Assembly (NCBI GenBank): GCA_050015075.1
Contig: JBEKCB010000039.1
Location: 1 to 35,706 of the forward strand
From: Candidatus Brocadiia bacterium
Lineage (GTDB): Bacteria > Planctomycetota > Brocadiia > CAIUPP01
Direction of reading: 5' to 3'
DNA length: 35,706 bases
Of this stretch, positions 433-35,556 are shown one piece after another. Under the pieces are notes generated by a model, which saw nothing but the letters and a program-made list of their open reading frames with translations, was not told where the DNA came from and did not search any database. Position 1 is the stretch's first letter. The number at the start of each line of letters is the position of its first letter. The translations under genes were made by a program, and so were the position numbers.

Positions 433-1377
433 TCAACCTGCCGCCGCCTCCGCGAGGAGGGCGAGCGTGCCGAGGCCGTAGTAGGTGTACTCGACGTCCG
501 GCGCGGCATCGCCGGCGCAGGCGCGGAATCCGCCGCGGCTGGCCTGAAGGTTGTGCGCGAATCTTGCCACGGGCGCGAGTTTCACTTGGCCGAGCGCGCC
601 GATTCCGGCCAGCGCGACCGAGGCGGTGAAGGTGGAAAGCAGGTCCGGCTCCGGCGCGCCCGAGCCGGCGGCGAAACCGCCTTCGGGGCACTGCATGGAG
701 GCGAGGAATTCGGCTGCGCGTTCATACAGGCCAGGCGCCTGTGCTTCATCGAAGAGCGTGAGCAGCGCCAGCGCGGCGGCGGTGGGATTCGTCGCGCCCT
801 CGCCGCCGGCCTGTGCGCTGTCGGCATAGCCGCCGTCGGCGCAGCGGCGCGAGTGGACGAACGCGGCGGCCTCGGCTGCGCCGGAAAAATCCGAGTCGCT
901 CAATTCGGCGCAGAGCGCGGCCAGGAACGTGTGGTACACCGTCGCTTCGCCGCCCGGGAACCGCGCATAGCCGCCGTCCGCCGCGCGCGAACGCGCGACG
1001 ACTTCCATGATCTCGGCGCGCCGCTCATCGTTGCGCCCGGCTCCGGCGCGCTCGCCGGCGAGCCGGCGGATGTACAGCAGGCAGAAGCACTCGATCATGT
1101 CCCTCGGCGGCGCGGAAAGACTGCCCGCGTACTGCGCCGCGCCGTGCCAGAGGCGCTCGTCGGCCGGGACCAGCAGTTCAGCGGAGCGAAGCGCGAACAT
1201 CGTGTAATAAACGTCCGATCCGCCCAGCCGCCCGGCGAACCCGCCGTCCGGACGCTGCGCCGCCAGGAGATACTCCGAATGCCTCGATCGGAAACTGTCC
1301 GGCAGGGATTTCAGCCCGGCGGTGAGGCGGGTGGTGAGAGTTGAGAGATAGCGTGGTTTTTCAGTGTCGCCTGGCAT
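433..1377 (-). CDS. Prenyltransferase/squalene oxidase repeat protein (single (alpha/alpha)6 barrel, geranylgeranyltransferase-beta-like)
   Basis: Repeated QW-like/PFTB motifs: YLLAAQRPDGGF, DVYYT, ADGGY (twice), FLASMQCPEGGF, LQASRGGF, DVEYTYYGL. Confidence 0.85.
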   Translation of the reverse strand: MPGDTEKPRYLSTLTTRLTAGLKSLPDSFRSRHSEYLLAAQRPDGGFAGRLGGSDVYYTMFALRSAELLVPADERLWHGAAQYAGSLSAPPRDMIECFCLLYIRRLAGERAGAGRNDERRAEIMEVVARSRAADGGYARFPGGEATVYHTFLAALCAELSDSDFSGAAEAAAFVHSRRCADGGYADSAQAGGEGATNPTAAALALLTLFDEAQAPGLYERAAEFLASMQCPEGGFAAGSGAPEPDLLSTFTASVALAGIGALGQVKLAPVARFAHNLQASRGGFRACAGDAAPDVEYTYYGLGTLALLAEAAAG

Positions 1378-1414
1378 GTTTCGCGGTCGATATGTTCTAA
1401 GAGTGCGAACCCTT

Positions 1415-1489
1415 CAATTTCCAAATCCAATTTCCAATTTCCAAACGGTGAGCGGCTTGCGCTCATTGAAAATTGGGACTCGGAAATTT
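1415..1489. repeat. CAATTTC heptamer array, central hairpin and partly complementary arm (palindromic intergenic element)
   Basis: caatttc-caaatc-caatttc-caatttc-caaa (1415-1445), hairpin tgagcg...cgctca (1449-1465), then ttgaaaattgggactcggaaattt, which is partly complementary to the heptamers. It is an AT-rich island in GC-rich DNA. Confidence 0.65.
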
Positions 1490-3231
1490 TACAAGACGGC
1501 TTCCAGGAGGAAATGCATCAAGTCGCGCAGCGCCTCGGCGGGCATGGCATCGGCCTCGGCGCGGGCGCGCTCGCGGTATTTCTCGACGAGCTTGCGCGCC
1601 TGGTCGAACGCGCCGCGCTCCTCGTAAACCTTGCGCAGGCTCTCGAGCTTGAGGTCGCGCGCCACGTCGGGCTCGGTCACCGAGGCGAGTTTGCGGATCG
1701 TCGCCGCGTCGCCGGTCTCGAGCGCGAGCGCCAGCAGCATCGTCGGCCGCCGCGCGAGCGAATCCTGCCCGGCCACGAGCTTGTCGCGCCGGTCGGCGCT
1801 CCAGTCCTTCAGGTCGTTCAGGAGTTGATACGCCACGCCGACGAGACGGCAGAACCGCCGCAAGTTCTCCGTGCGCGCGAGGTCCGGGCTCTCGCATTGC
1901 GCCGTCCGCACGCCCGCATACAGGGCCGCCTCGAACGCCGGCGCCGTCTTCAGCGCATAGATCCGCTGGACGGCTTCCGGCCGCACGGCCATCGGGTCGC
2001 CGCGCGTCCAGAGAAGCTCCTCGCCCTGGCCGCGGCAGAGTTGCGTGTGCGCTTCGGAGAGATGGGCGAGGATGTCCGCGACGCACTCCGCGCCGAGTTC
2101 GCGCCGGCCCGACGCGACGAGCCGGTAGCCGAGCCCGATCAAGTAATCGCCGACGTTGAGCGCCGTCGCTATGCCGTGCCGGCGGTGCAGCGTCTCGCGC
2201 CCGTAGCGGAACTCATCGTCGTCCTCGATATCGTCATGGATCAGCGAGGCCTTATGAAGCGCCTCGATCGCGAGCGCGACCCGCCGGACGGCGCGCGGGA
2301 AATTCCCGGCCTCGGCGGAATCCGCATCCGGCGCGCCGGCGTCGCGCGACGCGGCGGCATGGCCCGCCAGCGTGATGAACGGCCGAAGCCGCTTGCCGCC
2401 TTCGCGCAGCCACTCGAGCGCCAGCGTTTCCGTGCCCTGCGCGGGAGACATTTCGCAAGGGCCGTTCATCGTCGCCGAGACGACCATGTCGGCGAGCAGT
2501 TCGTCGAGCGCGCGGTCCTCGAAGAGCCGGTCGGCGGCGCGGAGGAGCGGAACGTAGCTCCGCGTACCGGTCCCGGCGGGCCCGGCCTGCTGGCGGAGCC
2601 AGCCTCGCAGGACGGCGATTTCGGCGGTGGTGGCGACGCAGCCGTCGGTGAGGAGCGGCACGGCCACGTGCGGAACGCCCAGCGCGGCGACTCGTGCGAA
2701 GACTTTCTCGAGCGAGTCGAGGCACGCCATGCCCAGGATCGCGTCCGCCTGCCCTCGCAGGACGACCTCGACGACCGCCGGCGAGCCCTCCGCGATGAGC
2801 ACGGTGTATCCGAGCGACTCCGCCTCGGCCTTGACGGCCGCCAGCGTGCAGGCGCCGCACTTCGCGCACGAGAGGCCGCGCGCGTCGTACGTGCCTTTGC
2901 ATTCCCTGACGTGGCGGAGGCAATGCGGCAGCAGCAGCAGCCTTCGCGACGGCGGCACGGCGGCGAACTGCCCGCGCCAGAATTCGTTGTTGACCGACAC
3001 CATCGCAAAGCCCAGAGAGGATGGAGCGGCATGAAGCCGGCCGATCAGATCGGACGCCGCCTTCTCGACCTCGGCGGGCAGGGGCGGCTTGCGACGGTCG
3101 AGCGTCGCGGCGGCGTCGGCGGCCGCCGCGCGGATGCGCTCGCGCTCCAGCGGCTCCGCCGGGACGATCTTGATATTGACCGGCGAGGGCCGTTTATTGC
3201 TCGTCGCGATGTCGTTCATTTGATGGACCAT
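1489..3231 (-). CDS. DUF116 (Cys-rich) domain fused to a trans-polyprenyl diphosphate synthase
   Basis: N-terminal LLLPHCL...C...CAKCGAC...IAEGS...GMAC (DUF116 pattern). C-terminal GGKRLRP, ASLIHDDIEDDDEFRYG (FARM), GQ, KT and YQLLNDLKD (SARM variant). Confidence 0.88.
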   Translation of the reverse strand: MVHQMNDIATSNKRPSPVNIKIVPAEPLERERIRAAAADAAATLDRRKPPLPAEVEKAASDLIGRLHAAPSSLGFAMVSVNNEFWRGQFAAVPPSRRLLLLPHCLRHVRECKGTYDARGLSCAKCGACTLAAVKAEAESLGYTVLIAEGSPAVVEVVLRGQADAILGMACLDSLEKVFARVAALGVPHVAVPLLTDGCVATTAEIAVLRGWLRQQAGPAGTGTRSYVPLLRAADRLFEDRALDELLADMVVSATMNGPCEMSPAQGTETLALEWLREGGKRLRPFITLAGHAAASRDAGAPDADSAEAGNFPRAVRRVALAIEALHKASLIHDDIEDDDEFRYGRETLHRRHGIATALNVGDYLIGLGYRLVASGRRELGAECVADILAHLSEAHTQLCRGQGEELLWTRGDPMAVRPEAVQRIYALKTAPAFEAALYAGVRTAQCESPDLARTENLRRFCRLVGVAYQLLNDLKDWSADRRDKLVAGQDSLARRPTMLLALALETGDAATIRKLASVTEPDVARDLKLESLRKVYEERGAFDQARKLVEKYRERARAEADAMPAEALRDLMHFLLEAVL

Positions 3232-3260
3232 CTTATGAATATTCGCTTATGAAACGCAAT

Positions 3261-5048
3261 TCATGTGCCGCCTAGTATTCGCCCAAGCGCGGAGACCGTC
3301 CACAGCGCCGGGTAGACTCTCTCAGCATACCACAACTTGGCGAAATACAAACCGATCGGCGCGGGCTTGTCCAGGCCGCCCTCGCGGATTCGCGCGAGAA
3401 GCCATGCGCAGCCGCGGTCGCGGGCGGTTGTGGCGGACTCGCTCTCGGGCGCGCCGGCCAGCGCGTCCAGCGCGAGCGCGGTTTCCTCGATGCTGCTGGG
3501 CACGTTCTCATCGCCGCCCCAACCGCCATCGGGATTCTGCGCGCGGAGGAGCCGGGCCAGACCGCGCTGCGCCTCGACGCCGTTCCCCAGGCCCAGGTCG
3601 CGCCAGGCGGCCAGCACTTGCGCGGTGCCGTAGAGCGGGTTCTCGTCGCGCGGCGCCTGCTGGTTCCCGAACCAGAGCGGCACCCACGCGCCGTCGGCGC
3701 GCTGCGCGCGGCGGAGATATTCCACGCCGCGCCGCAGGGCGCGCTGCTCCTTTGCGTCGGAAACGACGCCGCGCCACGCCGAGATCGCCCTCAGCGCGTG
3801 CGCGGTCAGGTCCGGCGCGCTGCGGTCGAAGGGAAGCCGTCCCCAGCCGCGACAGAACGTCGGCCATCCGCCGTCGCGGTTCTGAAGGCCCAGGAGCCAC
3901 TCGACGCCGAGCCGCGCGGCATCGGTCGCTTCGCCGCCGAGCCGGCTTAACGCCAGCAGCGCCGCCGAGGTGTCGTCGGCGTCGGGGACGCCGCCGGAAA
4001 GGTCCGTCCATGCCCAGCCGCCCGGAGCGGCGCCGGTATAGAGATGTCCGCGACGGTGCTGGCAGTCGAGGATCCACCGGCGCGTGCGGGCGGCATCGGG
4101 CTCGAAGCGATTCCCGCCCGCCGTCAGCGCGGCCACCGCCAGGCTGGTGAGCCAGTGCGAAAGGTTCGTGTCAATGGCCCAGCTTCCGTCCGCGCGGAGG
4201 GATTTCGAGAGGAATTCCAGCCCGCGGCGAGCGACGGGGTGATCGCTCCGGCCGGCGCCGGCGAGGCTCATCACGACGAAACTGGTCAGCGGCACGGCCT
4301 CCAAAAACCCGCCGCTCTCCGGCTGGATCGCCTGGAGCCGCCGGAGCGTCGGGGCGAGCGTCGCCGCCCGGAGCGCGCGCAGGAACGGGTTGCGGCTGGG
4401 CGCTGCATGGTGGCGAAGCTGGCCGACGGCGATCAGCGCCGGCAGCGCGTAACTGACCACTTCGAGATTGAGCAGCCGGAAGCTCGCGTGCGGCAGGCAG
4501 GCCAGCTCGAAGGGCAGCGCCGGCACGTGGCGCCATGCCGGACGCGTCGGGCCCGCAGCCGCCAGCGCGCAGTTCGTCAGGATCGGCGCGGCGAAGGTCC
4601 GGTCCTCGCCGTAGACCGCTTGAAGCGCCCGCACGCGCGAGTCGGCGGAGGCGCCGGCGCTGGAGTCGAGATATCGCTCCGCTTTCCGCAGCGCCGACGC
4701 GGCGGGATCCGAACCTTCGCGGCCCGAAAGGATCAACGCGGCCTCGGCGAGCATCGCCGTTGAGACGTTGCTGCGGCTCTCGGGCGTATCGCCCCAGCCG
4801 CCGTCCGCGTTCTGGTGGGCCGCCAGCCACGCCACGCCGCGCCCGATGAAGTCGGCGAACCGCTCGCGCGAGACGACGGAAAAGGCGCTCACCGCCGTCG
4901 CGGTCGCGAGGGCGGAAGGCGACAGCTCCCCGTTCCAGCATCCCTCGGGCGTTTGCCATGCCAGAAGGGCGGCGCGGGCGGATTCGTAGGCCTCGCGAAG
5001 TTCTTTGACGCCCGGCCGCGGCGGCGCGCCGGCGAGGGATGGGGTCAT
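3261..5048 (-). CDS. Squalene-hopene-cyclase-like class II terpene cyclase
   Basis: Catalytic PDADDT (DxDD) and several QW repeats (WLAAHQNADGGWG, WLLGLQNRDGGW, YLRRAQRADGAW, LLRAQNPDGGWG). Start placed at ATG 5048, which overlaps the upstream TGA (ATGA coupling). Confidence 0.88.
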   Translation of the reverse strand: MTPSLAGAPPRPGVKELREAYESARAALLAWQTPEGCWNGELSPSALATATAVSAFSVVSRERFADFIGRGVAWLAAHQNADGGWGDTPESRSNVSTAMLAEAALILSGREGSDPAASALRKAERYLDSSAGASADSRVRALQAVYGEDRTFAAPILTNCALAAAGPTRPAWRHVPALPFELACLPHASFRLLNLEVVSYALPALIAVGQLRHHAAPSRNPFLRALRAATLAPTLRRLQAIQPESGGFLEAVPLTSFVVMSLAGAGRSDHPVARRGLEFLSKSLRADGSWAIDTNLSHWLTSLAVAALTAGGNRFEPDAARTRRWILDCQHRRGHLYTGAAPGGWAWTDLSGGVPDADDTSAALLALSRLGGEATDAARLGVEWLLGLQNRDGGWPTFCRGWGRLPFDRSAPDLTAHALRAISAWRGVVSDAKEQRALRRGVEYLRRAQRADGAWVPLWFGNQQAPRDENPLYGTAQVLAAWRDLGLGNGVEAQRGLARLLRAQNPDGGWGGDENVPSSIEETALALDALAGAPESESATTARDRGCAWLLARIREGGLDKPAPIGLYFAKLWYAERVYPALWTVSALGRILGGT

Positions 5049-6664
5049 GATCGGATGCTCCCCGACCTCGCCGCGAAGAGGCATTTCCAGGCGAGCGTCT
5101 GCGCGCGGCCGAGCGCCTGCAGCGTGCTGCGCCGCCAGAGCGGCACGCCGGCGGCGGATTGATTATCCCACAGGAGGCGCGGAGCCCACCGGAAGTTCAG
5201 GTCGTAGCACGCGCGGAACAGCCGCCAGTGCGCGGCCGACATTTCTTTGAGGCCGAACGGCGCCGCCCCGGCGCTCAGCGGAGCGTTGAAGAGCGGGAAG
5301 ATCGCCAGCCGTTCGCCCGACAGGCGCTGGACCCAGCGGAACGTCCGGTCCACGTCGGCGGGCGTCTCTCCGGGCAGGCCGAACAGGATGCTGACCAGCG
5401 GGAAGTAGCCGAGCCGGACGAGGCGGCGCACCTGGTGTTCGGAGAATTCGTCCCACGCTTCCGGTTCGACTCCGCCCATCTTCGCGCGGCCGCCGTTCGC
5501 GGCGAGCAGCGCGCCGGAGGCGGTCTCGACGCCCAGGTTCAGCCAGACGAATTCGTGACCGGTGCCGCCGACGATGCCGCGGCGGACGGCGGCGAGTTCC
5601 TCGTCGCTGAATTGCGCCGCCGAGCTGACGTTGGCGTGGTCGGTCTGGATCAGCCGCGTCGCCGCGAGCGAGCGCAGGCGTGTGACGAGTTCGATCAGCG
5701 CCGCCGGCCGCGCGCGCGCGCCCTGCGCCCCGTAGCGGAAAACGTCCTCGGTGACGAGAACGAGGTCCGTCACGCCGGCGGCGAGGTTCACCTGCGCGTC
5801 GGCAAGGATGGCGTCCATCGGCAGGTGCTCCATCGGCACGCGCGCGAGCGTGCAGAAGGCGCAGCCGAGCCCGCAGCCGCGGCTGATTTCCACGCCGCCC
5901 ATGAGCGTCGGGCCGAGGATCGGCGGGATTTTCTCCGCGTCGGCGACGCGCGCTCCGGCGAGCGCGTCCGGGAGTTTTTCGCCGTCGAGAATGCGCGCGA
6001 AGAGCGCGCCGATGTTGCCTTCGCAATAGCCGGAGATCACGTGGTCAATCCCCAGTTCCTCCTGCGCGCGGCGGTTGCCGGCGAGCTGCCACGCGCCGGC
6101 GCCGCCGAGCACGATCTTAGCCTCGGGAGCGGCGGACCGGCGAAGGCGGCGGATGCTCCCGGCGAGCCGCCGGAACCAGCGGCTGGTGTAAATCTCGCCG
6201 CCGAGGATGGCCGACATCGTCGTGCTGTTCATGCCGAGCCCAAGCGGATCGCCGGAGGAGATGCCGATGACGCGAGTGTCCGGCCCGACCGCGCGCTTGA
6301 GCGAAGCCGGGTCCACGATCGCCACGTCCGCCTGTCGAAAGCCCGTGCGCGCGAGGGCGGACTCGATGCGGCGAAGCCCGAGCGGCGACTGGAATGCCCG
6401 GAAGCCGTCGCGCCGCGCGGCCGGGGCGAGGAGCGTTTTCATCAGGAGCGACGGCGTGCGCGTGGTCTGGCTCGCGCTGACCATGCCTTCGAACAGGACG
6501 CGGTAGCCGGCGAAAAGTGTGCGGTCGGCGGTCAGGACGATCGGGATGCCGTGCCGCGGAGCGGTCCGCACCTTGAGCCGGGGAAAGGCCGATGCGTCGG
6601 CGACCGGCGCTAGGACGGCGGCCGTAGCGGCAGCGGGCGTCGGCAGGCGGTCGGAGTCACTCAT
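5045..6664 (-). CDS. B12-binding-type radical SAM protein resembling the archaeal Grs/COG1032 family
   Basis: CxxxCxxC in VEISRGCGLGCAFC; N-terminal IVLTADRTL, PLGLRRIESAL, IGISSGDPLG, IVLGGAGAWQ; LGVETAS and GLPGETPAD. ATG 6664 overlaps the end of the upstream gene. Confidence refers to the radical SAM call; the family assignment is less certain. Confidence 0.85.
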   Translation of the reverse strand: MSDSDRLPTPAAATAAVLAPVADASAFPRLKVRTAPRHGIPIVLTADRTLFAGYRVLFEGMVSASQTTRTPSLLMKTLLAPAARRDGFRAFQSPLGLRRIESALARTGFRQADVAIVDPASLKRAVGPDTRVIGISSGDPLGLGMNSTTMSAILGGEIYTSRWFRRLAGSIRRLRRSAAPEAKIVLGGAGAWQLAGNRRAQEELGIDHVISGYCEGNIGALFARILDGEKLPDALAGARVADAEKIPPILGPTLMGGVEISRGCGLGCAFCTLARVPMEHLPMDAILADAQVNLAAGVTDLVLVTEDVFRYGAQGARARPAALIELVTRLRSLAATRLIQTDHANVSSAAQFSDEELAAVRRGIVGGTGHEFVWLNLGVETASGALLAANGGRAKMGGVEPEAWDEFSEHQVRRLVRLGYFPLVSILFGLPGETPADVDRTFRWVQRLSGERLAIFPLFNAPLSAGAAPFGLKEMSAAHWRLFRACYDLNFRWAPRLLWDNQSAAGVPLWRRSTLQALGRAQTLAWKCLFAARSGSIRS

Positions 6665-7442
6665 CCAACTTCTCAAGAGCGGTGATCAAGTGATCGAGGT
6701 CGCCCGGCGGCGCGCTTTCACCGCGGGCATCCTCCTGCGGCGCCGGGCGCGAAGTCTCCGGCCGGCTCGGTGTCTCCGACCCCGCTCTTCGCAGCTCCGC
6801 CGCTACGGCGGGCGAAGAAGAGTCGGCGGGCTGAGAAGAGCCGGTGATGGCGGCGTCCGCGAAGTAGTGCGGGAAAATGATGGCGCGCTGCGGACAGGTC
6901 CGCGCACAGGCCGGGCAGCCGTTCTTGCAGTTGTCGGGGTTGCCCACGACGACGTTGCCGTCGGAGAGCGCGTACACGCCGAACAGGCAGAAGTCCACGC
7001 ACTTCCGGCAACTTGTGCAGCGCGAGTAATCTATCACCGGATACCACCGCGGACTCGCCGCGTCCGCGATTTCCTTCAGCGTGGCGGCGCGACCTGCCGC
7101 GGATCGGGGCGCGAGCGCACGGGCGCAATCTGCTACCGTCGCGAAATCGGCCAGGTTCAAGCAGCGGATCGCGCGCGCGCCGACGCCCAGCGCCCGAAGC
7201 GTCCAGAGCGCGGCGCGCGGATGCAGCCATGAGGCGACCGCGAGGTCGCCGCGCGCTTGCATCAAGGCCGCCGCGGCCGGCTGCGAGGCGCGCAGGTGAT
7301 ACAGGTGCGGCACCACGAGCAGGTCCGATCCGGCTTCCCGCCGCAGCGTGTCCGCGAGCGCGTCTTCGAAGGCGGCATGATCGCCGGCGATCCCTCGCCC
7401 GTCGCGCGAGATGACGATGGTCACTGCTTGAGATTGAAGCAT
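6657..7442 (-). CDS. Ferredoxin-domain protein, 2x[4Fe-4S], with an N-terminal extension
   Basis: CTSCRKCVDFC and CKNGCPACARTCP. Start set at ATG 7442 because the longer ORF overlaps typA and a promoter. Confidence 0.82.
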   Translation of the reverse strand: MLQSQAVTIVISRDGRGIAGDHAAFEDALADTLRREAGSDLLVVPHLYHLRASQPAAAALMQARGDLAVASWLHPRAALWTLRALGVGARAIRCLNLADFATVADCARALAPRSAAGRAATLKEIADAASPRWYPVIDYSRCTSCRKCVDFCLFGVYALSDGNVVVGNPDNCKNGCPACARTCPQRAIIFPHYFADAAITGSSQPADSSSPAVAAELRRAGSETPSRPETSRPAPQEDARGESAPPGDLDHLITALEKLDE

Positions 7443-7482
7443 GGATAAAGAATCCCCACGCGAAAGGAAACCGGACTCTTCA

Positions 7483-7512
7483 ATTATAAACTGAATCGGG
7501 CAGGGGTGTAAA
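7483..7512 (-). promoter_or_regulatory. Sigma70-type promoter for the terpenoid operon
   Basis: Minus strand TTTACA-N18-TATAAT, about 40 nt upstream of ATG 7442. Confidence 0.55.
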
Positions 7513-7545
7513 CGGGAACTCCAGCACGCATCGGTCTTCGTCTGA

Positions 7546-9366
7546 TCAGTCCTGCAGGCGATCCGGAAGCGGCTTGCCGGTGAAGAGGCGCGCCTTGCGG
7601 AGGCGGATGGATTTGGGCGTGACTTCGACGAGTTCATCGTCGCGGATGAACTCGATCCCGCTTTCCAGGGAGACCGGGGTCACCGGCGTGAGGATGACGG
7701 TCATCTCTTTGCCCTTCGCGCGGACGTTCGTGAGCTTCTTGGTCTTGCACGGGTTGACGATGAGATCGTTCTCGCGGCAGTGCTCGCCGATGATCATCCC
7801 TTCGTAAACCTTCTCGCCGGGCGTGATGAACAACGGGCCGCGTCCCTCCAGAGTCTCCAGCGCGTAGGTCACCGCGTCGCCTTGCGCGTTCGACACCAGC
7901 GAGCCGGTCGTGCGCGTGGCGAAATCGCCGCGGTATTCCTCGTAGCCGTCGAGATACGAACTCATGATGCCGGTGCCCTTGGTGTCGGTGAGGAACTCGT
8001 TGCGGTAGCCGATGAGGCCGCGCGTGGGGATGGAGATTTCCAGCCGCACGCGTCCGCTGCCGTGGTTGACGAGGTTGACCATGCGCCCTTTGCGGCGCGA
8101 GAGTTTCTCGATGACCACTCCCATGTGCTTTTCATCGCAGTCAACGAACAGGCGCTCGATCGGCTCCAGCCGCTTGGGGCCTTCGCCCTTGTAGATCACC
8201 TGCGGGCGGCCGATGCTGAGTTCGTATCCTTCGCGCCGGAGCGTCTCGGCGAGGATGACCATCTGGAATTCGCCGCGCCCCTGGACGATGAACTCGTCGG
8301 TCTCGGCGGTCATGATGATGCGGAGCGCGACGTTGCGCAGCGCCTCTTTCAGCAGGCGTTCGCGGATCTGGCTGGCGCGGACGAACTTGCCCTCGCGGCC
8401 GGTGAAGGGCGAGCTGTTGATGGTGATCATCACGGAAACGGTCGGCTCGTCCACGCTCACGCGCGGCAGGGCGCGCGGGGCCTCGCGGGTGCTGATCGTG
8501 TCGCCGATGTTCACGTCTTCAACGCCCGCGAGAATGATCACGTCGCCGGGCGCGGCCTCGTCCACGTCCTCGATCTTCACGCCGCGATACGTCTGGAGGC
8601 TCGTGACTTTCAACGGCAGCGCGACGCCTTCGGCGTTGATGCGCACGAGCGCGTCGTTGCGCTTCGCGGAGCCGTGGGCGATCTTGCCGATCGCCAGACG
8701 ACCGAGATAGTCGGAGTAGCCCAGGTCCGTCACGAGCATCTGGAACGGCTCGTCGGTGTCGTACGAGGGCGGCGGGAGTTCCTTGAGGATCATGTCGAAG
8801 AGCGGCGCGAGGTCTTTGCCCTCTTCCTCGATGGTCGGCTTGGCGATGCCCTCGCGCCCGATCGCGTAGAGCAGCGGGAACTCGGCCTGATGGTCCGTGG
8901 CGTCGAGGTCAATGAAGAGGTCGAAGATCTCGTTGAGCACCTGCACCGGGCGCGCGTCCTTCCGGTCGAGCTTGTTGATGACGACGATCAGGCGCAGCCC
9001 GCGCTCGAGGGCCTTGCGCAGGACGAAGCGCGTCTGCGGCAGGGGGCCTTCGGCGGCGTCCACGAGCAGCACCGCGCCGTCCACCATCATCAGCGCGCGC
9101 TCGACCTCGCCGCCGAAATCGGCGTGGCCGGGCGTGTCCACGACGTTGATCTTGACGCCCTTCCAGTTCATCGAGCAGTTCTTCGCGGCGATGGTGATGC
9201 CGCGCTCGCGCTCGAGGTCCATGTTGTCCATCACGCGCTCGACGACCTCCTCGTTCTCGCGGAACGTGCCGCTCTGGCGGAACATGTAGTCCACCAGCGT
9301 GGTCTTGCCGTGGTCCACGTGCGCGATGATGGCGATGTTGCGGATTTTGTCGTTGAACTGCTTCAT
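7546..9366 (-). CDS. typA: Translational GTPase TypA/BipA
   Basis: [48 protein letters not shown]-terminal [14 protein letters not shown]; start MKQFNDK at 9366. Confidence 0.97.
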
Positions 9367-9492
9367 CGTTTCCAGACGGCTTTCCAGAGAAAAACAGCGG
9401 GCGAGCGGGAGACCGCTCGCGGTCAACAGGAGTTCACCGAGCGCCGGCAGGGAGATCTGCTTCAGTCCGGATGCACCTCTTGCGCCTCGCCT

Positions 9493-9545
9493 ATTATACC
9501 CACTTGCAGGGCCGTTTGACAAGCGACGCCGGGCGCTGCGATAGT
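9493..9545. promoter_or_regulatory. Overlapping divergent promoters (typA on minus, TPR-AAA on plus)
   Basis: Minus strand: TTGTCA (9522-9517)-N18-TATAAT (9498-9493). Plus strand: TTGACA (9516-9521) with a weaker -10 (GATAGT) at 9540-9545. Confidence 0.5.
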
Positions 9546-9589
9546 AGATAATGGAATTCAGCCGAAAAGCCAGGCACGGAAGGCGTGAA

Positions 9590-10429
9590 ATGGCGTTGAT
9601 CCCCAACGGCGCCGGTCCACAGGCCGATGCCGCGCCGGCCCGGACGAACCGGTACTTTGTCGAACTCGATTGCCCCGACGCGCCCGCGCTGGACCTCGAG
9701 TGGAACTACACGGACCGGGCGGAGCGCATTTACCGGGCCGGGCACCGCTGCCTGGCGCGCGGCCTCTTCGCGGAAGCGCTGGCGCTCTTCCAGCGGGCGA
9801 CGCACTACGATTCCACGCACTACGCCGCGTACGTCGCGCAGGCCGAGGCGCTGATCCTCCTGAAGCGGACGGAGGACGCGGCGCGCGTCTCCGATGAAGC
9901 GATGGACCGCTACGGCCGCAATTGCGCCATCGGCGCGGCGCGCGGACACGTGTTGCTCCACCAGGACGACGCGGAACAGGCGCTCAAATTCGTGGAAATC
10001 GCCACGGAGAACGATCCCACGAGCGCCTACGCCTGGATCATCGCCGGCGAGGCGCACGTCGCGGCGCGCTCGGCGCTGCCGCTGATCATGCACTCCTTCG
10101 CGCGCAGCCGCGCGTGCCGGGACCTCTGGCCGAACCAGGATATCCGCATCGCGCTGGCGTACCTGGAATGGGGAGCCGCGGCGTACGCCGTCGGAGCGCT
10201 GGAGGCGGTGGTCGTCGCCGAGCCGGACCTCCCGTTCGCGTGGAAACTGCTCGGCGACGCTTACCGCCAGGAAGGGCGGGGCCGGCAGGCGATGGCCAGC
10301 TACCGCCGCGCGGTGGAACTGGCGCCGCAATTCCAGTCCGCGCTCCAGGCGCTGACCTGGCGGGCGCGCGTCGAGGACTACTGGCGGCGCTTGCGGGATG
10401 TCATCGTCTCGCAGGTGGAAACGCGCTGA
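9590..10429 (+). CDS. Tetratricopeptide repeat protein
   Basis: TPR-like helical repeats (AWKLLGDAYRQEG...AMASYRRAVELAP; ALALFQRATHYDS...AYVAQAEAL). GGAAGG RBS precedes ATG 9590; alternative start at 9551. Confidence 0.8.
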   Translation: MALIPNGAGPQADAAPARTNRYFVELDCPDAPALDLEWNYTDRAERIYRAGHRCLARGLFAEALALFQRATHYDSTHYAAYVAQAEALILLKRTEDAARVSDEAMDRYGRNCAIGAARGHVLLHQDDAEQALKFVEIATENDPTSAYAWIIAGEAHVAARSALPLIMHSFARSRACRDLWPNQDIRIALAYLEWGAAAYAVGALEAVVVAEPDLPFAWKLLGDAYRQEGRGRQAMASYRRAVELAPQFQSALQALTWRARVEDYWRRLRDVIVSQVETR

Positions 10430-12483: not shown

Positions 12484-13980
12484 TCACCGTTTCTTTTGCA
12501 GCGCGGCGATGGCTTTGCGGGCGGCGAGATAGCCGCTTTTGGCGGCGCCTTCGAACGTGGGATAGACCATGTAATCTCCGGCGAGCAGGAGGCGGCCGAG
12601 CGTGATCTCGTGTAGACGCATCAGCCGCTTGTGCGCGCCGAGGGTCATGACCGGGAACGCGTGCGGGAACCGCTCGACGCGCGAGGCGACGATCTTCGCG
12701 CCCGAGCCGGGCAGCACGCGCTCGAGGTCTGCGCGGACGGCTGCGAGGATTTCATCGTCGGTCATCCGCATGAGCTTCGGATCGGCGTAGCTCTCCGGCG
12801 GAATGTAGACGGTCGTAACGCAGCCGGCCGCGTTCTTCGCGTCGGGGTCGCAGAAACGCTGGACCCAGGTCGCGTCGTAGATGTCCGTGAAGAAGAGCCC
12901 GTCGGGCGCGGCCAGGTCGAACGCGCGGTCGAAGATCGGCGTCTTGCTGGTGAAAGAGACGGTCGCGTAGGAGGAGTACGGAATCTTCGCGAGAAGTTCC
13001 CTCTGCTCGTCGCCGAGTTCGTCGCCCGCTATCTTCAGCGCGGCGGGCGCCGCGACGGCGAGGATGACCACGCGCGCGCTGATCGTCCGCTCGCCGGCCT
13101 TCGCATCCCGGTACGTCACTTCGCAGCGGCCGTCCGCGGTCCGGACGCTCAGGACGGCGGCATTCAGCCGGAGCCGGTCGCCGAGGTCGGCGGCGAGCGC
13201 ATCGGTCAATTCGGTCAAGCCGGTCTTGAACGTGTACGCTTCGGTGGCGCGCCTGCCGCGGCCGGTTTCGTTCGCGAGTTTCTCGTTATCCTTGATGAGG
13301 CGCGCGTCCTCGTAGTCGAAGGCGATTTCGGGCAGGGCGCAGAGCGCGGAAATCTCGCCCAGGTTCGCGCCGAAAATGCCTCGCGCGGCGACGTTGTAGC
13401 GCTGGAGGAAAATCTCCGGGAACTTCATCCGGTTGAGCCAGTCCTTCGCGCTGATGTCGTCGAGTGCGGCCAGTTCGGAATCCGGGTCGAGGCGGGGAAT
13501 CTCTTCGTACTCCGACGTGAATTCCTGCATGGCCGAGACGAAGCGGTTGTATTCGCCAACGCTGGCGCGGCGGACGAAAAGCGAGGCGATCCCGGTTTCG
13601 CCGAGGTAGAGTTCGCCGTCCTGCCAGGCGGCGTCCATGGGAGAAGGAATCTGCACCGGCGTCAGCTTCAGCGCGCGGACGATCTTGCCGATCTCATCCG
13701 TCGGCTTGCCGATGTATTCCGCGCCCATCGCACAGGAAAAGTCACCGACCTTGTACGAGATCGCTTTGCCGCCGGGCCGGCCCTCTTTTTCCAGGACGAC
13801 GATGTCGTAGTTCTTCAGATAAAACGCCGCCGTCAGCCCGGCCAGTCCGGCGCCGACGATGATGACGTCGTGCGGCTTCTCGGCCGGTTCGCGATCGGGC
13901 GTCGCGCCCGATGCCGCGGCCGCAGCGAGAAGCAGCAGGGCGCAGAGGGCGGCGCGCCGCGCAGCGGGATTCCTCGACAT
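12484..13980 (-). CDS. Exported FAD-dependent oxidoreductase (flavin amine oxidase / protoporphyrinogen oxidase-like)
   Basis: Signal peptide MSRNPAARRAALCALLLLAAAAASG; DVIIVGAGLAGLTAA...VLEKEGRPGG; C-terminal LAGDY...EGAAKSG. Confidence 0.85.
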   Translation of the reverse strand: MSRNPAARRAALCALLLLAAAAASGATPDREPAEKPHDVIIVGAGLAGLTAAFYLKNYDIVVLEKEGRPGGKAISYKVGDFSCAMGAEYIGKPTDEIGKIVRALKLTPVQIPSPMDAAWQDGELYLGETGIASLFVRRASVGEYNRFVSAMQEFTSEYEEIPRLDPDSELAALDDISAKDWLNRMKFPEIFLQRYNVAARGIFGANLGEISALCALPEIAFDYEDARLIKDNEKLANETGRGRRATEAYTFKTGLTELTDALAADLGDRLRLNAAVLSVRTADGRCEVTYRDAKAGERTISARVVILAVAAPAALKIAGDELGDEQRELLAKIPYSSYATVSFTSKTPIFDRAFDLAAPDGLFFTDIYDATWVQRFCDPDAKNAAGCVTTVYIPPESYADPKLMRMTDDEILAAVRADLERVLPGSGAKIVASRVERFPHAFPVMTLGAHKRLMRLHEITLGRLLLAGDYMVYPTFEGAAKSGYLAARKAIAALQKKR

Positions 13981-14076
13981 GCTTCGGCAGCCTTTTCATT
14001 AAATGTGTCGCCGGCGAGTTGAGCATTTTATCTTAAGCGAAGGATTTCGCAAACCTGGGCGGCGCCGAAGAAGTGC

Positions 14077-14105
14077 TTGACTGGCGTCACCCCGGTCGCC
14101 AGAAT
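14077..14105 (+). promoter_or_regulatory. Possible sigma70 promoter of the plus-strand GT-C gene
   Basis: TTGACT-N17-CAGAAT, about 40 nt upstream of ATG 14145. Confidence 0.35.
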
Positions 14106-14144
14106 GTGACGTTCGATGTCCGGCCGTCGCGTGTAAGGTGCCCT

Positions 14145-15746
14145 ATGGCAAGATCCGAATGCCGCGAACCTGATCCGCCCGCCGTCCCGCCGGCACGGGG
14201 ATTGCCGATGTGGCTGCCGGCGATGGTCCTCGCTCTCGCGTTGAGCGCGCTGGTCTTCGCCACCTTGCGCGACTACGGCATCACTTGGGACGAGCCGACC
14301 TATGCCTCGTCGGCCATCTCGCACTCGGCCTGGTTCCGCAGCCCGCGGCTGGCGACCATTGACCGGTTCTGGTCTCCGACCCACGAGCATCCGCCGCTGG
14401 CCGGCCTGGCCGGCGCGTTCATCCGCTACGCCGTCCATCGGCAGTTCGGCCTGCTCGACAACGTGTCGAGCTGCCGTCTGCAATGCGTGATCTTCGTCTT
14501 CCTGGGCAGCTTTGCGCTGTTCATGCTGATCGGGAGAAGTTACAGCTGGTGGACGGCCGCCCTGGCGGCGACGTCGTTCATCCTGCTGCCGCGCGTGTTC
14601 GCCGACGCGCATTTCGTGGCGCTGGACTTCCCGACGACGGCGGTTTGCGTCGCGGCGGCGTGGCTGTTCTGGCGCGGACTGGCGCGCGGGCGGATGCTGC
14701 CGGCGGCGGTGCTGATCGGCCTGGCCATGCTCTGCAAAGTCTATGGCCAGTTTCTGTACGCGCTGTGCCTTATCTGGTTCGCCGTGCATCACCGGCAGGC
14801 GTGGCTGGACCTGGCCCGGCGGCGAGGCGGCGACCTATGGCCGCGCGCCTTGAGGGAACTGGCGGTGCTGATCTGCGTCCCGTGGCTGATCTTCTTCGCC
14901 GGCTGGCCATGGCTCTGGCCGCACCCGATTCAGCGGACGCTCGACTACCTCACCTGGCAGGCCGGGCACGTAGCGCCGCCGACGTGGTACTTCGGCCGGA
15001 CGTCCGATCATCCGCCCTGGCATTACCCGTTCGTGATGAGCGCCGTCACGATGCCGCTGGCGGTGCTCCTGGCGATTCTGCCGGGCGTGTCGCGGCTGCG
15101 AAGGGCGGCTGAGCGCCCGTTCGTACTTTTCCTGCTGGCCAACGCCTTCACGCCGCTGGCGGTCGTGGCGTTCCTGACGCCGTGCAAATACGACGGCGTG
15201 CGGCTGTTCCTGCCGGCGTTCCCGTTCCTCTGCGCGCTGGCGGCGATCGGCGTGCAGGAGGTCTGCACGCTGCCGCGAGCGCCCTGGGCGCGACGGGCGG
15301 CGGCCGCGGCCTGCGCCGCCATATTCCTGCTGACGTTCGCGTCTTCCACGTACCGATACCACCCGTTCCAGACCTCGTATTACAACGAGCTGCTGGGCGG
15401 CGTGCGCGGCGCCGCGGAGAAGGGATTCGAGACCGAGTATTGGGGCAACGCCTATGTGAAGCTGATTCCCTGGCTGCAGAATCATCCAGGGGTACCGTTG
15501 TGGGTGCCGATCAATTACGACTCGCTCAAGATGTACCAGGACCTGGACGTGCTTCCGGAGCTGCGATTGACCGGCCGCGCGCAGGCGGACTACCTGGTGC
15601 TGCTGGTGCGACAAGGGCGGTTCGATGAGGAACTGTGGCGGTTCTATCGCACGGAAAAGCCGGAGATTTCCGTAACGCTGCTCGGTCAGCCGCTTGTCAA
15701 TGTCTACCGCCTGAACGCGCCGGTCACTCCGCCGTCAGGACGATGA
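14145..15746 (+). CDS. GT-C fold membrane glycosyltransferase (PMT/ArnT, GT39/GT83-like)
   Basis: DYGITWDEP after TM1, EHPPL, many TM helices, PPWHYP, KYDGVRLFLP, YYNELLGG...GFETEYWG. Start uncertain. Confidence 0.82.
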   Translation: MARSECREPDPPAVPPARGLPMWLPAMVLALALSALVFATLRDYGITWDEPTYASSAISHSAWFRSPRLATIDRFWSPTHEHPPLAGLAGAFIRYAVHRQFGLLDNVSSCRLQCVIFVFLGSFALFMLIGRSYSWWTAALAATSFILLPRVFADAHFVALDFPTTAVCVAAAWLFWRGLARGRMLPAAVLIGLAMLCKVYGQFLYALCLIWFAVHHRQAWLDLARRRGGDLWPRALRELAVLICVPWLIFFAGWPWLWPHPIQRTLDYLTWQAGHVAPPTWYFGRTSDHPPWHYPFVMSAVTMPLAVLLAILPGVSRLRRAAERPFVLFLLANAFTPLAVVAFLTPCKYDGVRLFLPAFPFLCALAAIGVQEVCTLPRAPWARRAAAAACAAIFLLTFASSTYRYHPFQTSYYNELLGGVRGAAEKGFETEYWGNAYVKLIPWLQNHPGVPLWVPINYDSLKMYQDLDVLPELRLTGRAQADYLVLLVRQGRFDEELWRFYRTEKPEISVTLLGQPLVNVYRLNAPVTPPSGR

Positions 15747-17373
15747 ACGCCGGCGGATCGGCCGGGTCGCGGAACGCGACACGCCAGGGCGCCGGGAGTT
15801 TCACCACGCGCACGGAATCGTCGTCCACGTCCACCCACTCGCGCAGGCCGGCGCGGTTGCGCAGCAGGCTGTAGTCCAGCACGGCGTAGCGCGCGCCCGC
15901 GGCGCGCATGGCCGGCCGCAAGGCATCCGTCGTCGTCCACGGCACCGGCACAATGCATCCAGCCAGTTCGGCGTCCCAGAAGTAAGCGTACGCGTGCGAG
16001 GGGCCCAGCATCACGGGAGCATCCACCGAGGCGTGCGCGTGCAGCCATATGCGGAGCGCCTCATATCCGGGAGGCAGGCGATAGCTGGCGAGGGGATCCT
16101 GCCGGAGACCTTGCCAAGGCGCGGCGAGCGCGATGGTGGCACACGCCAGGACCAGCGCTGCGATCAGGGCGACGCAGCGCGCGGGGATGGTCCGGTGTGC
16201 CGCCCTGGCCGCGCGGCGGAGCGCCGGAAACAACCCGCGTGTGGCCAGGATAAGCAGGATCGGCACGAGCGGGAAGATGAAGCGGATGTCTTGAGCCGGA
16301 TACCACGCGAAGAACAGGAAAAACACCGCGAAGATAAACCAGGCCAGCACCGCGGCGGGCCGCACCGAGCGCGAGCATAAGGGCGCCAGCGCAAGGAGCA
16401 GGAGGAGCAGTCCCAGCGGCCAGGCCTTCAAGCGCAGGCGCTCGTTCAGGGGATAAGTCTGGCCGACGGCGACGACGGAATAGACTCCCTGCTGGAACAG
16501 CCCCGTTGTCGCGCGGTGGGCAATCTGCCGCAGCGTGTGCGTGCGCCAGAACAGGCCCGCCGTCGGCGCGCGCACGTTGACATCGGTCGAGTACAACTCG
16601 TCGGGATGGTTCGTCCAGATGAAGCTCTTGTTCTCGTTATACAGCGGCGGGCCGTAGAGCCGGACATTGCGGACCAGGACCGGCGACATCACAACGGCCA
16701 TCGCCAGCAGCGCGGCCCACGCCTCGCGCGAGCGCCAGAGCCGCCGCCGCTCGCGCCATGCAAACGCCCCCAGCGCCGCCGGCAGCAGGAAGAGGCCGTT
16801 CGCCTTGGTGACGTACGCCAGCCCGATGAAGAGGCCGATCCACACGCCGCCGCGCCCGGTGCGCACGTAGCGAACCATGAACGCCCACGCCAGGAGCACC
16901 CAGATGGCGAAGATCGGCTCGCAGCAGACCGTGGTTCCCTGGGTCAGCCAGGAGGTGTTGCAGGCCAGGAGCGCCGCCGCCAGGATGCCCGCCGCGGCCC
17001 CGAACAGCCGCCAGCCGGCGACGCCGCAGACGACGACCCCGGCCGCGGCGATTCCCAAAGTGAGCAGCTTCGCCCATCCCACCCCTTGCAGCCGATCCAC
17101 GGGCAGTGGCGAGAGCAGGGCGATGTACAGCGGCATGCGGCCGGCTTCCGCGTACCTGCCGGCGTAGCAGTCGGCCAGCATCCGCAGGGGCCCGCCGTTC
17201 TGCCGCACTTCGCGGGCGACGCGCAGGTACGCGCCCGTGTCATACGGACAGAACTCCGGCTCCTCGTGCAGTTTGTTGAGGCCGGCGAGCAGGAATCCGG
17301 CCAGCGCCAGGACCAGGAGGCATCCGACGCCCCAACGTCCGGGATGAGAAAGCCATGAGCCCATAATCTGCAC
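15724..17373 (-). CDS. GT-C fold membrane glycosyltransferase (ArnT/PMT-like)
   Basis: PYDTGAYL after TM1, RMPLY, CEPIF, GLAYVTKANG, RNVRLYG, DIRFIFPLVP; many TM helices; start at 17373 (GTG) or 17364 (ATG). Confidence 0.8.
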   Translation of the reverse strand: MQIMGSWLSHPGRWGVGCLLVLALAGFLLAGLNKLHEEPEFCPYDTGAYLRVAREVRQNGGPLRMLADCYAGRYAEAGRMPLYIALLSPLPVDRLQGVGWAKLLTLGIAAAGVVVCGVAGWRLFGAAAGILAAALLACNTSWLTQGTTVCCEPIFAIWVLLAWAFMVRYVRTGRGGVWIGLFIGLAYVTKANGLFLLPAALGAFAWRERRRLWRSREAWAALLAMAVVMSPVLVRNVRLYGPPLYNENKSFIWTNHPDELYSTDVNVRAPTAGLFWRTHTLRQIAHRATTGLFQQGVYSVVAVGQTYPLNERLRLKAWPLGLLLLLLALAPLCSRSVRPAAVLAWFIFAVFFLFFAWYPAQDIRFIFPLVPILLILATRGLFPALRRAARAAHRTIPARCVALIAALVLACATIALAAPWQGLRQDPLASYRLPPGYEALRIWLHAHASVDAPVMLGPSHAYAYFWDAELAGCIVPVPWTTTDALRPAMRAAGARYAVLDYSLLRNRAGLREWVDVDDDSVRVVKLPAPWRVAFRDPADPPAFIVLTAE

Positions 17374-35469: not shown

Positions 35470-35556
35470 GCCGAAGTGGCGGAATTGGCAGACGCGCTAG
35501 GTTCAGGACCTAGTGGGTGTAAGCCCTTGCGAGTTCAAATCTCGCCTTCGGCACCA
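35470..35556 (+). tRNA. tRNA-Leu(CAG)
   Basis: Acceptor stem GCCGAAG/CTTCGGC plus ACCA; D-arm TGGCGGAATTGGCAGACGC; anticodon stem CTAGG-TTCAGGA-CCTAG; long variable arm; GTTCAAATC T-loop. Confidence 0.97.

Follow-up and report, generated by a model that had tools for sequence, protein, structure and literature searches.

Glycerol dialkyl glycerol tetraether (GDGT) ring synthases (Grs enzymes) are described, in the accessible sections of a recent report, as B12-binding radical S-adenosylmethionine (SAM) enzymes that are homologous, at about 30% identity, to enzymes carrying out different reactions, namely the methylases Gmm, Cgm and Pgm and the desaturase Ted (10.1101/2025.10.20.683597). Published bacterial homologues of Grs come from Acidobacteriae, Solibacter, Planctomycetota and Cloacimonadota, and the available text of these studies reads them as candidates for forming the rings of branched GDGTs (brGDGTs) (PMC11868695; 10.1101/2022.08.15.504015; Halamka et al., 2022). 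A separate line of work has defined an 'SHC-like' clade of terpene cyclases, sister to epoxy-polyprenyl cyclases and of open function, which the portions of those papers at hand report from Planctomycetes, in a genomic context that suggests a substrate other than squalene (Santana-Molina, 2020, PMC7306690; McShea, 2025, PMC12414744). Here we describe a 35,706-nucleotide stretch of DNA (the window; contig JBEKCB010000039.1 of assembly GCA_050015075.1, Candidatus Brocadiia bacterium) in which a Grs-like radical SAM gene belongs to a five-gene cassette that also encodes an SHC-like cyclase. Sequence comparison places the gene product as a monophyletic bacterial offshoot of an archaeal B12-type radical SAM family. 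Both the Grs homologues of bacteria and the SHC-like cyclases were known already, but our literature search found no paper joining the former to the SHC-like cassette; we further describe a radical SAM slot whose occupant varies. The gene is the following:

5045 to 6664, minus strand: Grs-like cobalamin-type radical SAM gene encoding 539 residues, with its ATG at 6664-6662 and its TGA at 5047-5045.

The third-position G+C content of this reading frame is 0.89, in a window of about 67% G+C. All five motifs that the initial annotation had quoted for the product are present in the 539-residue translation: IVLTADRTL (residues 42-50), PLGLRRIESAL (94-104), VIGISSGDPLG (132-142), IVLGGAGAWQ (184-193) and, at residues 258-271, the cluster-binding stretch VEISRGCGLGCAFC, whose CX3CX2C signature is formed by C264, C268 and C271. 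These motifs are not chance resemblances, since their equivalents (IVLTADxT, APYGLRKxEAxL, GISxxDPLGxGP, VGGPGAWQ and VEIxRGCGRGCxFC) form the consensus of 79 archaeal-type relatives described below. The three signature cysteines are the sole invariant cysteines in alignments of 56 and 79 sequences. With the Pfam Radical_SAM model the protein scores 30.2 bits, slightly more than the 29.5 required; among NCBIfam models TIGR04013 scores highest, with 67 bits where 251 would be needed. The genome contains many B12-type radical SAM paralogues, with 27 stretches matched to TIGR04013 and none above a family cut-off. A tblastn search of plasmids with the protein gave no match, and a scan of the window for RNA families returned one tRNA only and no cobalamin riboswitch.

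A word-indexed search that scored 7,999 candidates recovered 831 relatives at E ≤ 0.001. Identity is 84-88% for the best of them, most come from Planctomycetota metagenome-assembled genomes (MAGs), and the few named top relatives are MAGs of Brocadiia, Planctomycetes/Planctomycetota and Armatimonadota. An exhaustive search of 50%-identity representatives yielded 738 sequences at E ≤ 0.001, 323 at ≤ 1e-10 and 150 at ≤ 1e-30, which split into a core at ≥ 45% identity and a long band of full-length matches at 26-38%. This band includes Bathyarchaeia, Odinarchaeota, Nitrososphaerales, Baldrarchaeia, Hadesarchaea, Methanocellales, Syntropharchaeia, Helarchaeota and Promethearchaeota, along with the cultured archaea Picrophilus torridus/oshimae (AAT43521.1), Thermoplasma acidophilum (CAC12035.1), Acidilobus saccharovorans (ADL19688.1) and Geoglobus ahangari. 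In one relatives search the organism-named matches were archaeal in 17 of 17 cases, and the ESM Atlas returned two Planctomycetota clusters followed by one Bathyarchaeota cluster. BLASTP against 16 named archaeal members gave 27-34% identity with E values of 7e-45 to 6e-80 over most of the length. A locus scan added ten loci, five of them from Thermoplasmata archaea (30-33% identity) and five bacterial: one Brocadiia MAG (91% identity), two Planctomycetaceae, one Pirellulales MAG and one MAG labelled 'uncultured bacterium'.

Phylogenetic analysis groups the bacterial proteins into one clade among archaeal-type sequences. Fragments shorter than 440 residues were left out of the trees, whose rows include no labelled GrsA, GrsB, Gmm, Cgm or Ted. 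In a FastTree reconstruction (112 rows), the protein falls in a clade of 20 rows (support 99) and in one of 22 rows (support 100), within archaeal-type rows, and four paralogues from its own genome sit on branches of 2.3-3.4 changes per site. In a quick IQ-TREE run (LG+C20, 58 rows), the bacterial rows (18 of 18) form one clade with a Shimodaira-Hasegawa-like approximate likelihood ratio of 100, located among archaea on a poorly resolved backbone; the root of this tree is unsure because one outgroup paralogue fell inside. Proteins from Kiritimatiellota and Phycisphaerae also lie inside the bacterial clade. Elsewhere in the tree, P0535 (a Sulfolobales MAG) and P0161 (Bathyarchaeia) are near-sisters on branches of 0.18 and 0.14, a closeness across different class labels that could reflect a binning error or a recent transfer. 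Forty-two positions are conserved at ≥ 85% in both bacterial and archaeal rows, and five (Q66, M145, Y213, D289 and S425) are switched between them.

The initial annotation had preferred an archaeal B12-type radical SAM clade over the hopanoid enzymes, and profile comparisons bear this out. A profile built from 79 sequences of the 26-38% band, all archaeal where an organism is named, gives the window protein 394.9 bits (profile positions 4-480 of 506) and the next paralogue in the genome 64.7 bits; in two planctomycete genomes that lack the gene, it reaches at most 52 and 28 bits. The HpnR (TIGR04367) and HpnJ (TIGR03471) models match 15 and 17 places in the genome at E ≤ 0.01, none over the family cut-offs, and the window gene is not among them. 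Likewise, the NCBIfam scan of the protein returned no hopanoid family. The outcome that had been named as fatal to the annotation, best hits and tree placement with HpnP, HpnR or an unrelated class B methylase, thus did not come about.

The taxa of the archaeal relatives (Picrophilus, Thermoplasma, Acidilobus, Odinarchaeum, Bathyarchaeia, Nitrososphaerales, Hadesarchaea, Methanocellales and Archaeoglobi) correspond to those from which grs homologues have been published. In its available text, one survey reports grs homologues, defined by similarity to both GrsA and GrsB of Sulfolobus acidocaldarius at thresholds of ≥ 70% coverage, ≥ 20% identity and E ≤ 1e-40, from 12 archaeal classes including Bathyarchaeia, Hadarchaeia, Methanocellia, Lokiarchaeia, Archaeoglobi and Nitrososphaeria, with several copies in Picrophilus and A. 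saccharovorans (10.1101/2022.08.15.504015). Dataset S2 of PMC11214058 places Odinarchaeum yellowstonii LCB_4 under the encoders of GrsA, GrsB and Gms, with no Gmm of group 1 or 2, and this organism is the source of family member P0294. A BLASTP survey with Sulfolobus acidocaldarius GrsA (WP_011278400.1; E < 1e-30, ≥ 30% identity) found matches in 94 of 684 Planctomycetota MAGs, according to the accessible part of that study (PMC11868695). Planctomycete genomes hold a single protein of Grs-like type (one match each in 23 of 301 genomes), so that the published Planctomycetota GrsA matches are very probably members of the family described here. We also tried TIGR04190 (the Ta0216 family) as a stand-in for Grs and dropped it, the model being below its cut-off in the S. 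acidocaldarius control. From this literature and the comparisons above, we infer with considerable confidence that the window protein belongs to the Grs family.

The structure predicted by AlphaFold2 from a 56-row alignment (predicted local distance difference test score 92.2, predicted template-modelling (TM) score 0.90) has a disordered segment at residues 1-26, alternating Rossmann-like strands and helices over residues 42-236, a barrel that follows the cluster loop, and two long C-terminal helices (residues 477-504 and 509-538). The accessible text of a review describes, for Grs models, a Rossmann-like domain, a CX3CX2C-containing barrel, a C-terminal helix and no auxiliary cluster (PMC13459092). 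The predicted architecture of the window protein agrees with that description in its Rossmann-like N-terminal domain, its barrel, its C-terminal helices and its lack of cysteines for an auxiliary cluster; it is a putative cobalamin enzyme. The best Foldseek matches in the PDB are AprD4 (6fd2), which ranks first, MgmA (9ccb), TsrM (6wte), MiaB, RimO, TokK (7kdx), CysS and OxsB; TM scores are near 0.5 and identities 12-18%. Of these, TsrM, TokK, CysS, OxsB and MgmA are cobalamin enzymes. A sequence-profile comparison with solved structures ranks MgmA first (E 2.5e-22). Methylthiotransferases of the MiaB/RimO type carry an N-terminal cysteine triad for an auxiliary cluster and a C-terminal TRAM domain. 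The window protein matches the models of that group weakly (36.6 bits against a cut-off of 251) and was rejected as a member, having no conserved N-terminal cysteine and no TRAM domain in Pfam.

The radical SAM gene is the second of five closely spaced genes on the minus strand (433-7442), transcribed in the order ferredoxin-like protein, radical SAM protein, SHC-like DxDD cyclase, DUF116::polyprenyl synthase fusion and toroid protein. The features that surround it are:

7483 to 7512, minus strand: promoter-like TTTACA-18-TATAAT just upstream of the ferredoxin-like start, a consensus match only (11 of 12).
6657 to 7442, minus strand: ferredoxin-like protein, 261 residues from M66 of a long reading frame (6657-7637).
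3261 to 5048, minus strand: 'SHC-like' class II terpene cyclase with a DADD motif, 595 residues from the ATG in an ATGA overlap.
1489 to 3231, minus strand: DUF116::polyprenyl synthase fusion, 580 residues, with HDDIEDDD and NDLKD motifs.
433 to 1377, minus strand: single alpha-alpha toroid protein of the protein-prenyltransferase beta-subunit type, 314 residues.

The start of the radical SAM gene overlaps the last 8 nt of the ferredoxin-like gene, and its TGA shares an ATGA with an in-frame ATG of the cyclase, for which a longer reading frame of 607 residues begins at 5084. The bacterial terpene cyclase operon postulated by the initial annotation is thus present, with an SHC-type DADD protein of 595-607 residues starting on the stop codon of the radical SAM gene. 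Three promoter-like sites were found against 0.5 expected in shuffles. In the ferredoxin-like protein, some 130 N-terminal residues form a domain assigned to no Pfam family, followed by a core for two [4Fe-4S] clusters (C142/145/148/152 and C172/176/179/183) and a conserved acidic C-terminal tail, LDxLIxxLDxL. The DUF116 domain, for which a literature search found nothing relevant, has seven cysteines (C104, C111, C122, C125, C128, C170 and C198) that are invariant among 27 cassette proteins. The synthase domain is closest to solved archaeal geranylgeranyl diphosphate synthases (1wy0, E 4e-47; 5jfq) and then to long-chain synthases, and carries Ala and Ser at positions -5 and -4 before the first DDxxD. 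Under the chain-length rule for these enzymes, Ala/Ser at -5/-4 is compatible with products beyond C20. In the second aspartate-rich motif the window has NDLKD, against a family consensus of DDLxD. The toroid protein is nearest to the beta subunits of protein prenyltransferases (E ~3e-6).

Farther from the cassette, at 5-10 kb, lie a flavin amine-oxidase/phytoene-desaturase-like reading frame (12484-13980, minus strand) and two PMT_2-type membrane glycosyltransferase-like reading frames (within 14073-17373). The rest of the window consists of housekeeping genes, including TypA/BipA (7546-9606), YidC, MnmE, a P-type ATPase and a GGDEF protein, and a tRNA-Leu (CAG) is located at its end (35470-35556, plus strand).

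The arrangement recurs across 25 related loci (5 from named MAG records and 20 from a phylum scan, some perhaps from the same genomes). In 24 of them the radical SAM gene is closely preceded by a ferredoxin-like match, and the DUF116::polyprenyl synthase and toroid genes are present in all 18 loci with enough DNA, the other seven contigs ending within or right after the radical SAM or cyclase gene. The SHC-like cyclase is found within 17 of the 25 loci, either between the radical SAM and synthase genes or after the toroid gene; the four genomes checked whose locus is without it all encode an orthologue elsewhere (49-58% identity). Of 301 Planctomycetota genomes sampled, 23 carry the radical SAM gene (11 of the 191 high-quality genomes) and 75 the cyclase. 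Twenty-two of these 23 genomes have the cyclase at E ≤ 1e-60, and in the remaining one a cyclase start is located at a contig end.

We also inspected ten cyclase loci in genomes that lack the Grs-like gene. No Grs-like match appears in any of them at E ≤ 1e-3, all ten retain DUF116::polyprenyl synthase, and eight retain a ferredoxin-like match. In five of the ten, a different radical SAM protein of 390-418 residues is encoded in or beside the slot; it is SPASM/AhbD/NirJ-like, has no B12-type domain, and its nearest solved protein is cytosylglucuronate decarboxylase (7vob). The five genes are:

Locus L042, 5223-6413: short radical SAM gene.
Locus L048, 13473-14663, minus strand: short radical SAM gene.
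Locus L046, 5147-6403: short radical SAM gene.
Locus L047, 7306-8475: short radical SAM gene.
Locus L044, approximately 7618-8805, minus strand: short radical SAM gene.

This short form is absent from all 26 sequences with a Grs-like gene, and not one of the 36 sequences searched contains both types. Because the variants carry either the short radical SAM gene or none, the radical SAM position is a variable tailoring slot, whereas the cassette core consists of the synthase, the toroid protein, the cyclase and, in most loci, the ferredoxin-like protein. The same comparison bears on the suggestion that the adjacent ferredoxin serves as reductant. The position of its gene is conserved, but a partnership dedicated to the Grs-like protein does not hold, and we discarded the notion of an exclusive partner, given that eight of ten cassettes without the enzyme keep the ferredoxin-like match. 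The ferredoxin-like protein may serve the seven-cysteine DUF116 domain as much as the radical SAM protein.

Given a conserved operon with a prenyl-chain synthase and a hopene-cyclase-like enzyme, the radical SAM protein probably modifies a cyclic isoprenoid lipid, and we consider it likely that it does so as a Grs-family enzyme acting on the isoprenoid of its own cassette. Ring formation, cross-linking or methylation of a terpenoid had been suggested initially, any of which the enzyme may perform; ring closure is our first choice among chemistries, though held tentatively. In the mechanism that we propose, the DUF116::polyprenyl synthase would build a regular polyprenyl chain, an end of which the SHC-like DxDD cyclase would cyclize. 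The radical SAM protein would then cleave SAM at the [4Fe-4S] cluster bound by C264, C268 and C271, and the resulting 5'-deoxyadenosyl radical would take a hydrogen from an unactivated isoprenoid carbon. As proposed for Grs, cobalamin in the N-terminal Rossmann-like domain might help to retain the substrate radical until a second hydrogen abstraction closes a C-C bond, with a loss of 2 Da per ring. Electrons would come from a ferredoxin, possibly the one encoded upstream. Family placement, motifs, fold class and operon are thus established from sequence comparison, whereas substrate, cobalamin use, electron donor and chemistry are inferred. An archaeal GDGT was considered as the substrate and rejected, the host being bacterial and the gene lying in a polyprenyl synthase/cyclase operon; moreover, the genome (93.6% complete) has no match to the PcrB/geranylgeranylglyceryl phosphate synthase family, which argues against an archaeal-type ether lipid. 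Assembled in full, the proposal is that a Grs-family offshoot serves as an optional tailoring enzyme of a squalene-independent isoprenoid cassette and closes rings in its product, and as a whole it is a possible rather than a probable account.

Several observations weigh against this proposal. The Pfam B12-binding match of the protein (18.2 bits) is below the cut-off of 32.1, and AprD4, the top fold match with the same N-terminal domain, is not known to use cobalamin. Archaeal Grs acts on saturated chains, and a saturated target would need a reductase, which the cassette itself lacks; a geranylgeranyl reductase family gene is located elsewhere in the genome (G000:C1:20419-21288; 188 bits, over the cut-off), and its predicted product could saturate isoprenoid chains. 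The cassette evidently works without the radical SAM protein, as the cyclase family is present in 75 of the 301 genomes and the Grs-like gene in only 23. We know of no experiment on any member of the family. Homology does not fix the chemistry, because Grs, the methylases and the desaturase are mutually homologous at about 30% identity. Finally, most cobalamin-type radical SAM enzymes are methylases, as stated in the accessible sections of PMC13459092.

The last two points also speak for the alternative that survives best, namely that the protein is a cobalamin-dependent C-methyltransferase of the cassette isoprenoid, like Gmm, Cgm and Pgm: Grs and the methylases of GDGTs and of glycerol monoalkyl glycerol tetraethers are homologous B12-type radical SAM enzymes, the class consists in its majority of methylases, and the closest solved protein by profile, MgmA (9ccb), is itself one. 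Set against this are the listing of Odinarchaeum LCB_4 without Gmm group 1 or 2 despite its family member, the failure of the window protein and eight archaeal relatives to match TIGR04190 or other methylase equivalogs above noise, and the fit of the relatives' taxa, including Picrophilus and Nitrososphaerales, to the published grs range. On balance we regard methylation as unlikely, and retain ring closure as the favored chemistry.

A different substrate is at issue if the enzyme is a ring synthase of branched, non-isoprenoid tetraethers. Halamka et al. (2022) and later work propose Solibacter and Planctomycetaceae Grs homologues for the cyclopentane rings of brGDGTs, and the accessible text of a Black Sea study proposes the same for Planctomycetota (PMC11868695). 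DNA of the window recurs in many peat metagenome runs (12 rows with at least half of the sampled words, three being possible sources; no RNA run is among them), and peat is a typical environment for brGDGTs. The gene is, however, embedded in an isoprenoid cassette at every locus with enough DNA, its codons overlap the ferredoxin-like gene and the cyclase gene, Pfam detects no fatty-acid or ether-lipid gene among the cassette genes, and the genomes that carry it are a subset of those with the SHC-like cyclase (22 of 23). A brGDGT substrate is therefore improbable in comparison with the isoprenoid of the cassette.

Less probable again is an anaerobic desaturase of isoprenoid chains resembling the archaeal tetraether desaturase Ted. 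Ted is a B12-type radical SAM homologue from Bathyarchaeota that is 31% identical to Gmm, according to the available text of its description (10.1101/2025.10.20.683597), and Bathyarchaeia proteins are frequent among the relatives of the window protein, but a polyprenyl chain is already unsaturated. A hopanoid-modifying role (of HpnP, HpnR, HpnJ or HpnH type) can be set aside with near certainty despite the adjoining SHC-family cyclase and the B12-type architecture, since no HpnR or HpnJ match appears at E ≤ 0.01, the protein has no DUF4070 (no HpnP equivalog model was run by accession), and the neighboring cyclase reaches 122 bits against a hopene cyclase cut-off of 431.

Bacterial Grs homologues serve as markers for the makers of ringed brGDGTs, which are the basis of palaeoclimate proxies; membership in an isoprenoid cassette, if true, would mean that this use needs revision. 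A bolder extension, which we hold to be somewhat unlikely, is that a Grs-type enzyme passed from archaea to Planctomycetota and allied bacteria, which use it to put rings into the polyprenoid of the SHC-like cassette. Peat and sediment bacteria would in that case make undescribed ring-bearing isoprenoid lipids, a possible orphan biomarker, and bacterial Grs homologues would be unrelated to brGDGTs. The locus would also illustrate how a bacterial pathway can take over a lipid-tailoring enzyme family of archaea. The five-gene cassette also offers a defined set of proteins with which to approach the function of the widespread SHC-like cyclases, and its Grs-type member points to cyclic polyprenoid derivatives shifted by -2 Da or +14 Da as candidate products.

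Among described systems, MgmA, the methyl-coenzyme M reductase glutamine C-methyltransferase, is the second fold match (TM 0.53/0.66), but it is only 16% identical and is a methylase that acts on a protein. HpnP/HpnR and HpnJ present the same juxtaposition of a B12-type radical SAM enzyme and an SHC-family cyclase; they are distinguished by family models that do not match the window protein, by the published Pfam triple of HpnP (B12-binding, Radical_SAM and DUF4070), of which DUF4070 is missing here, and by the hopene cyclase that this genome lacks, no other place in it scoring above the 431-bit cut-off. The window cyclase is of the 'SHC-like' kind, with the DxDD motif kept, and the accessible sections of the papers that define this clade do not mention a radical SAM protein (PMC7306690; PMC12414744). 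Gmm, Cgm (Saci_1785), Pgm and Ted are further members of this group of homologous cobalamin-type radical SAM enzymes that modify lipid tails, and they catalyze differing reactions. GrsA (Saci_1585), GrsB (Saci_0240) and their archaeal homologues share with the window protein a length of about 500-550 residues, the domain architecture, the signature motifs and an isoprenoid context. They differ from it in their surroundings: the five Thermoplasmata homologues lie among unrelated genes, whereas the bacterial gene is part of a prenyl synthase/terpene cyclase operon.

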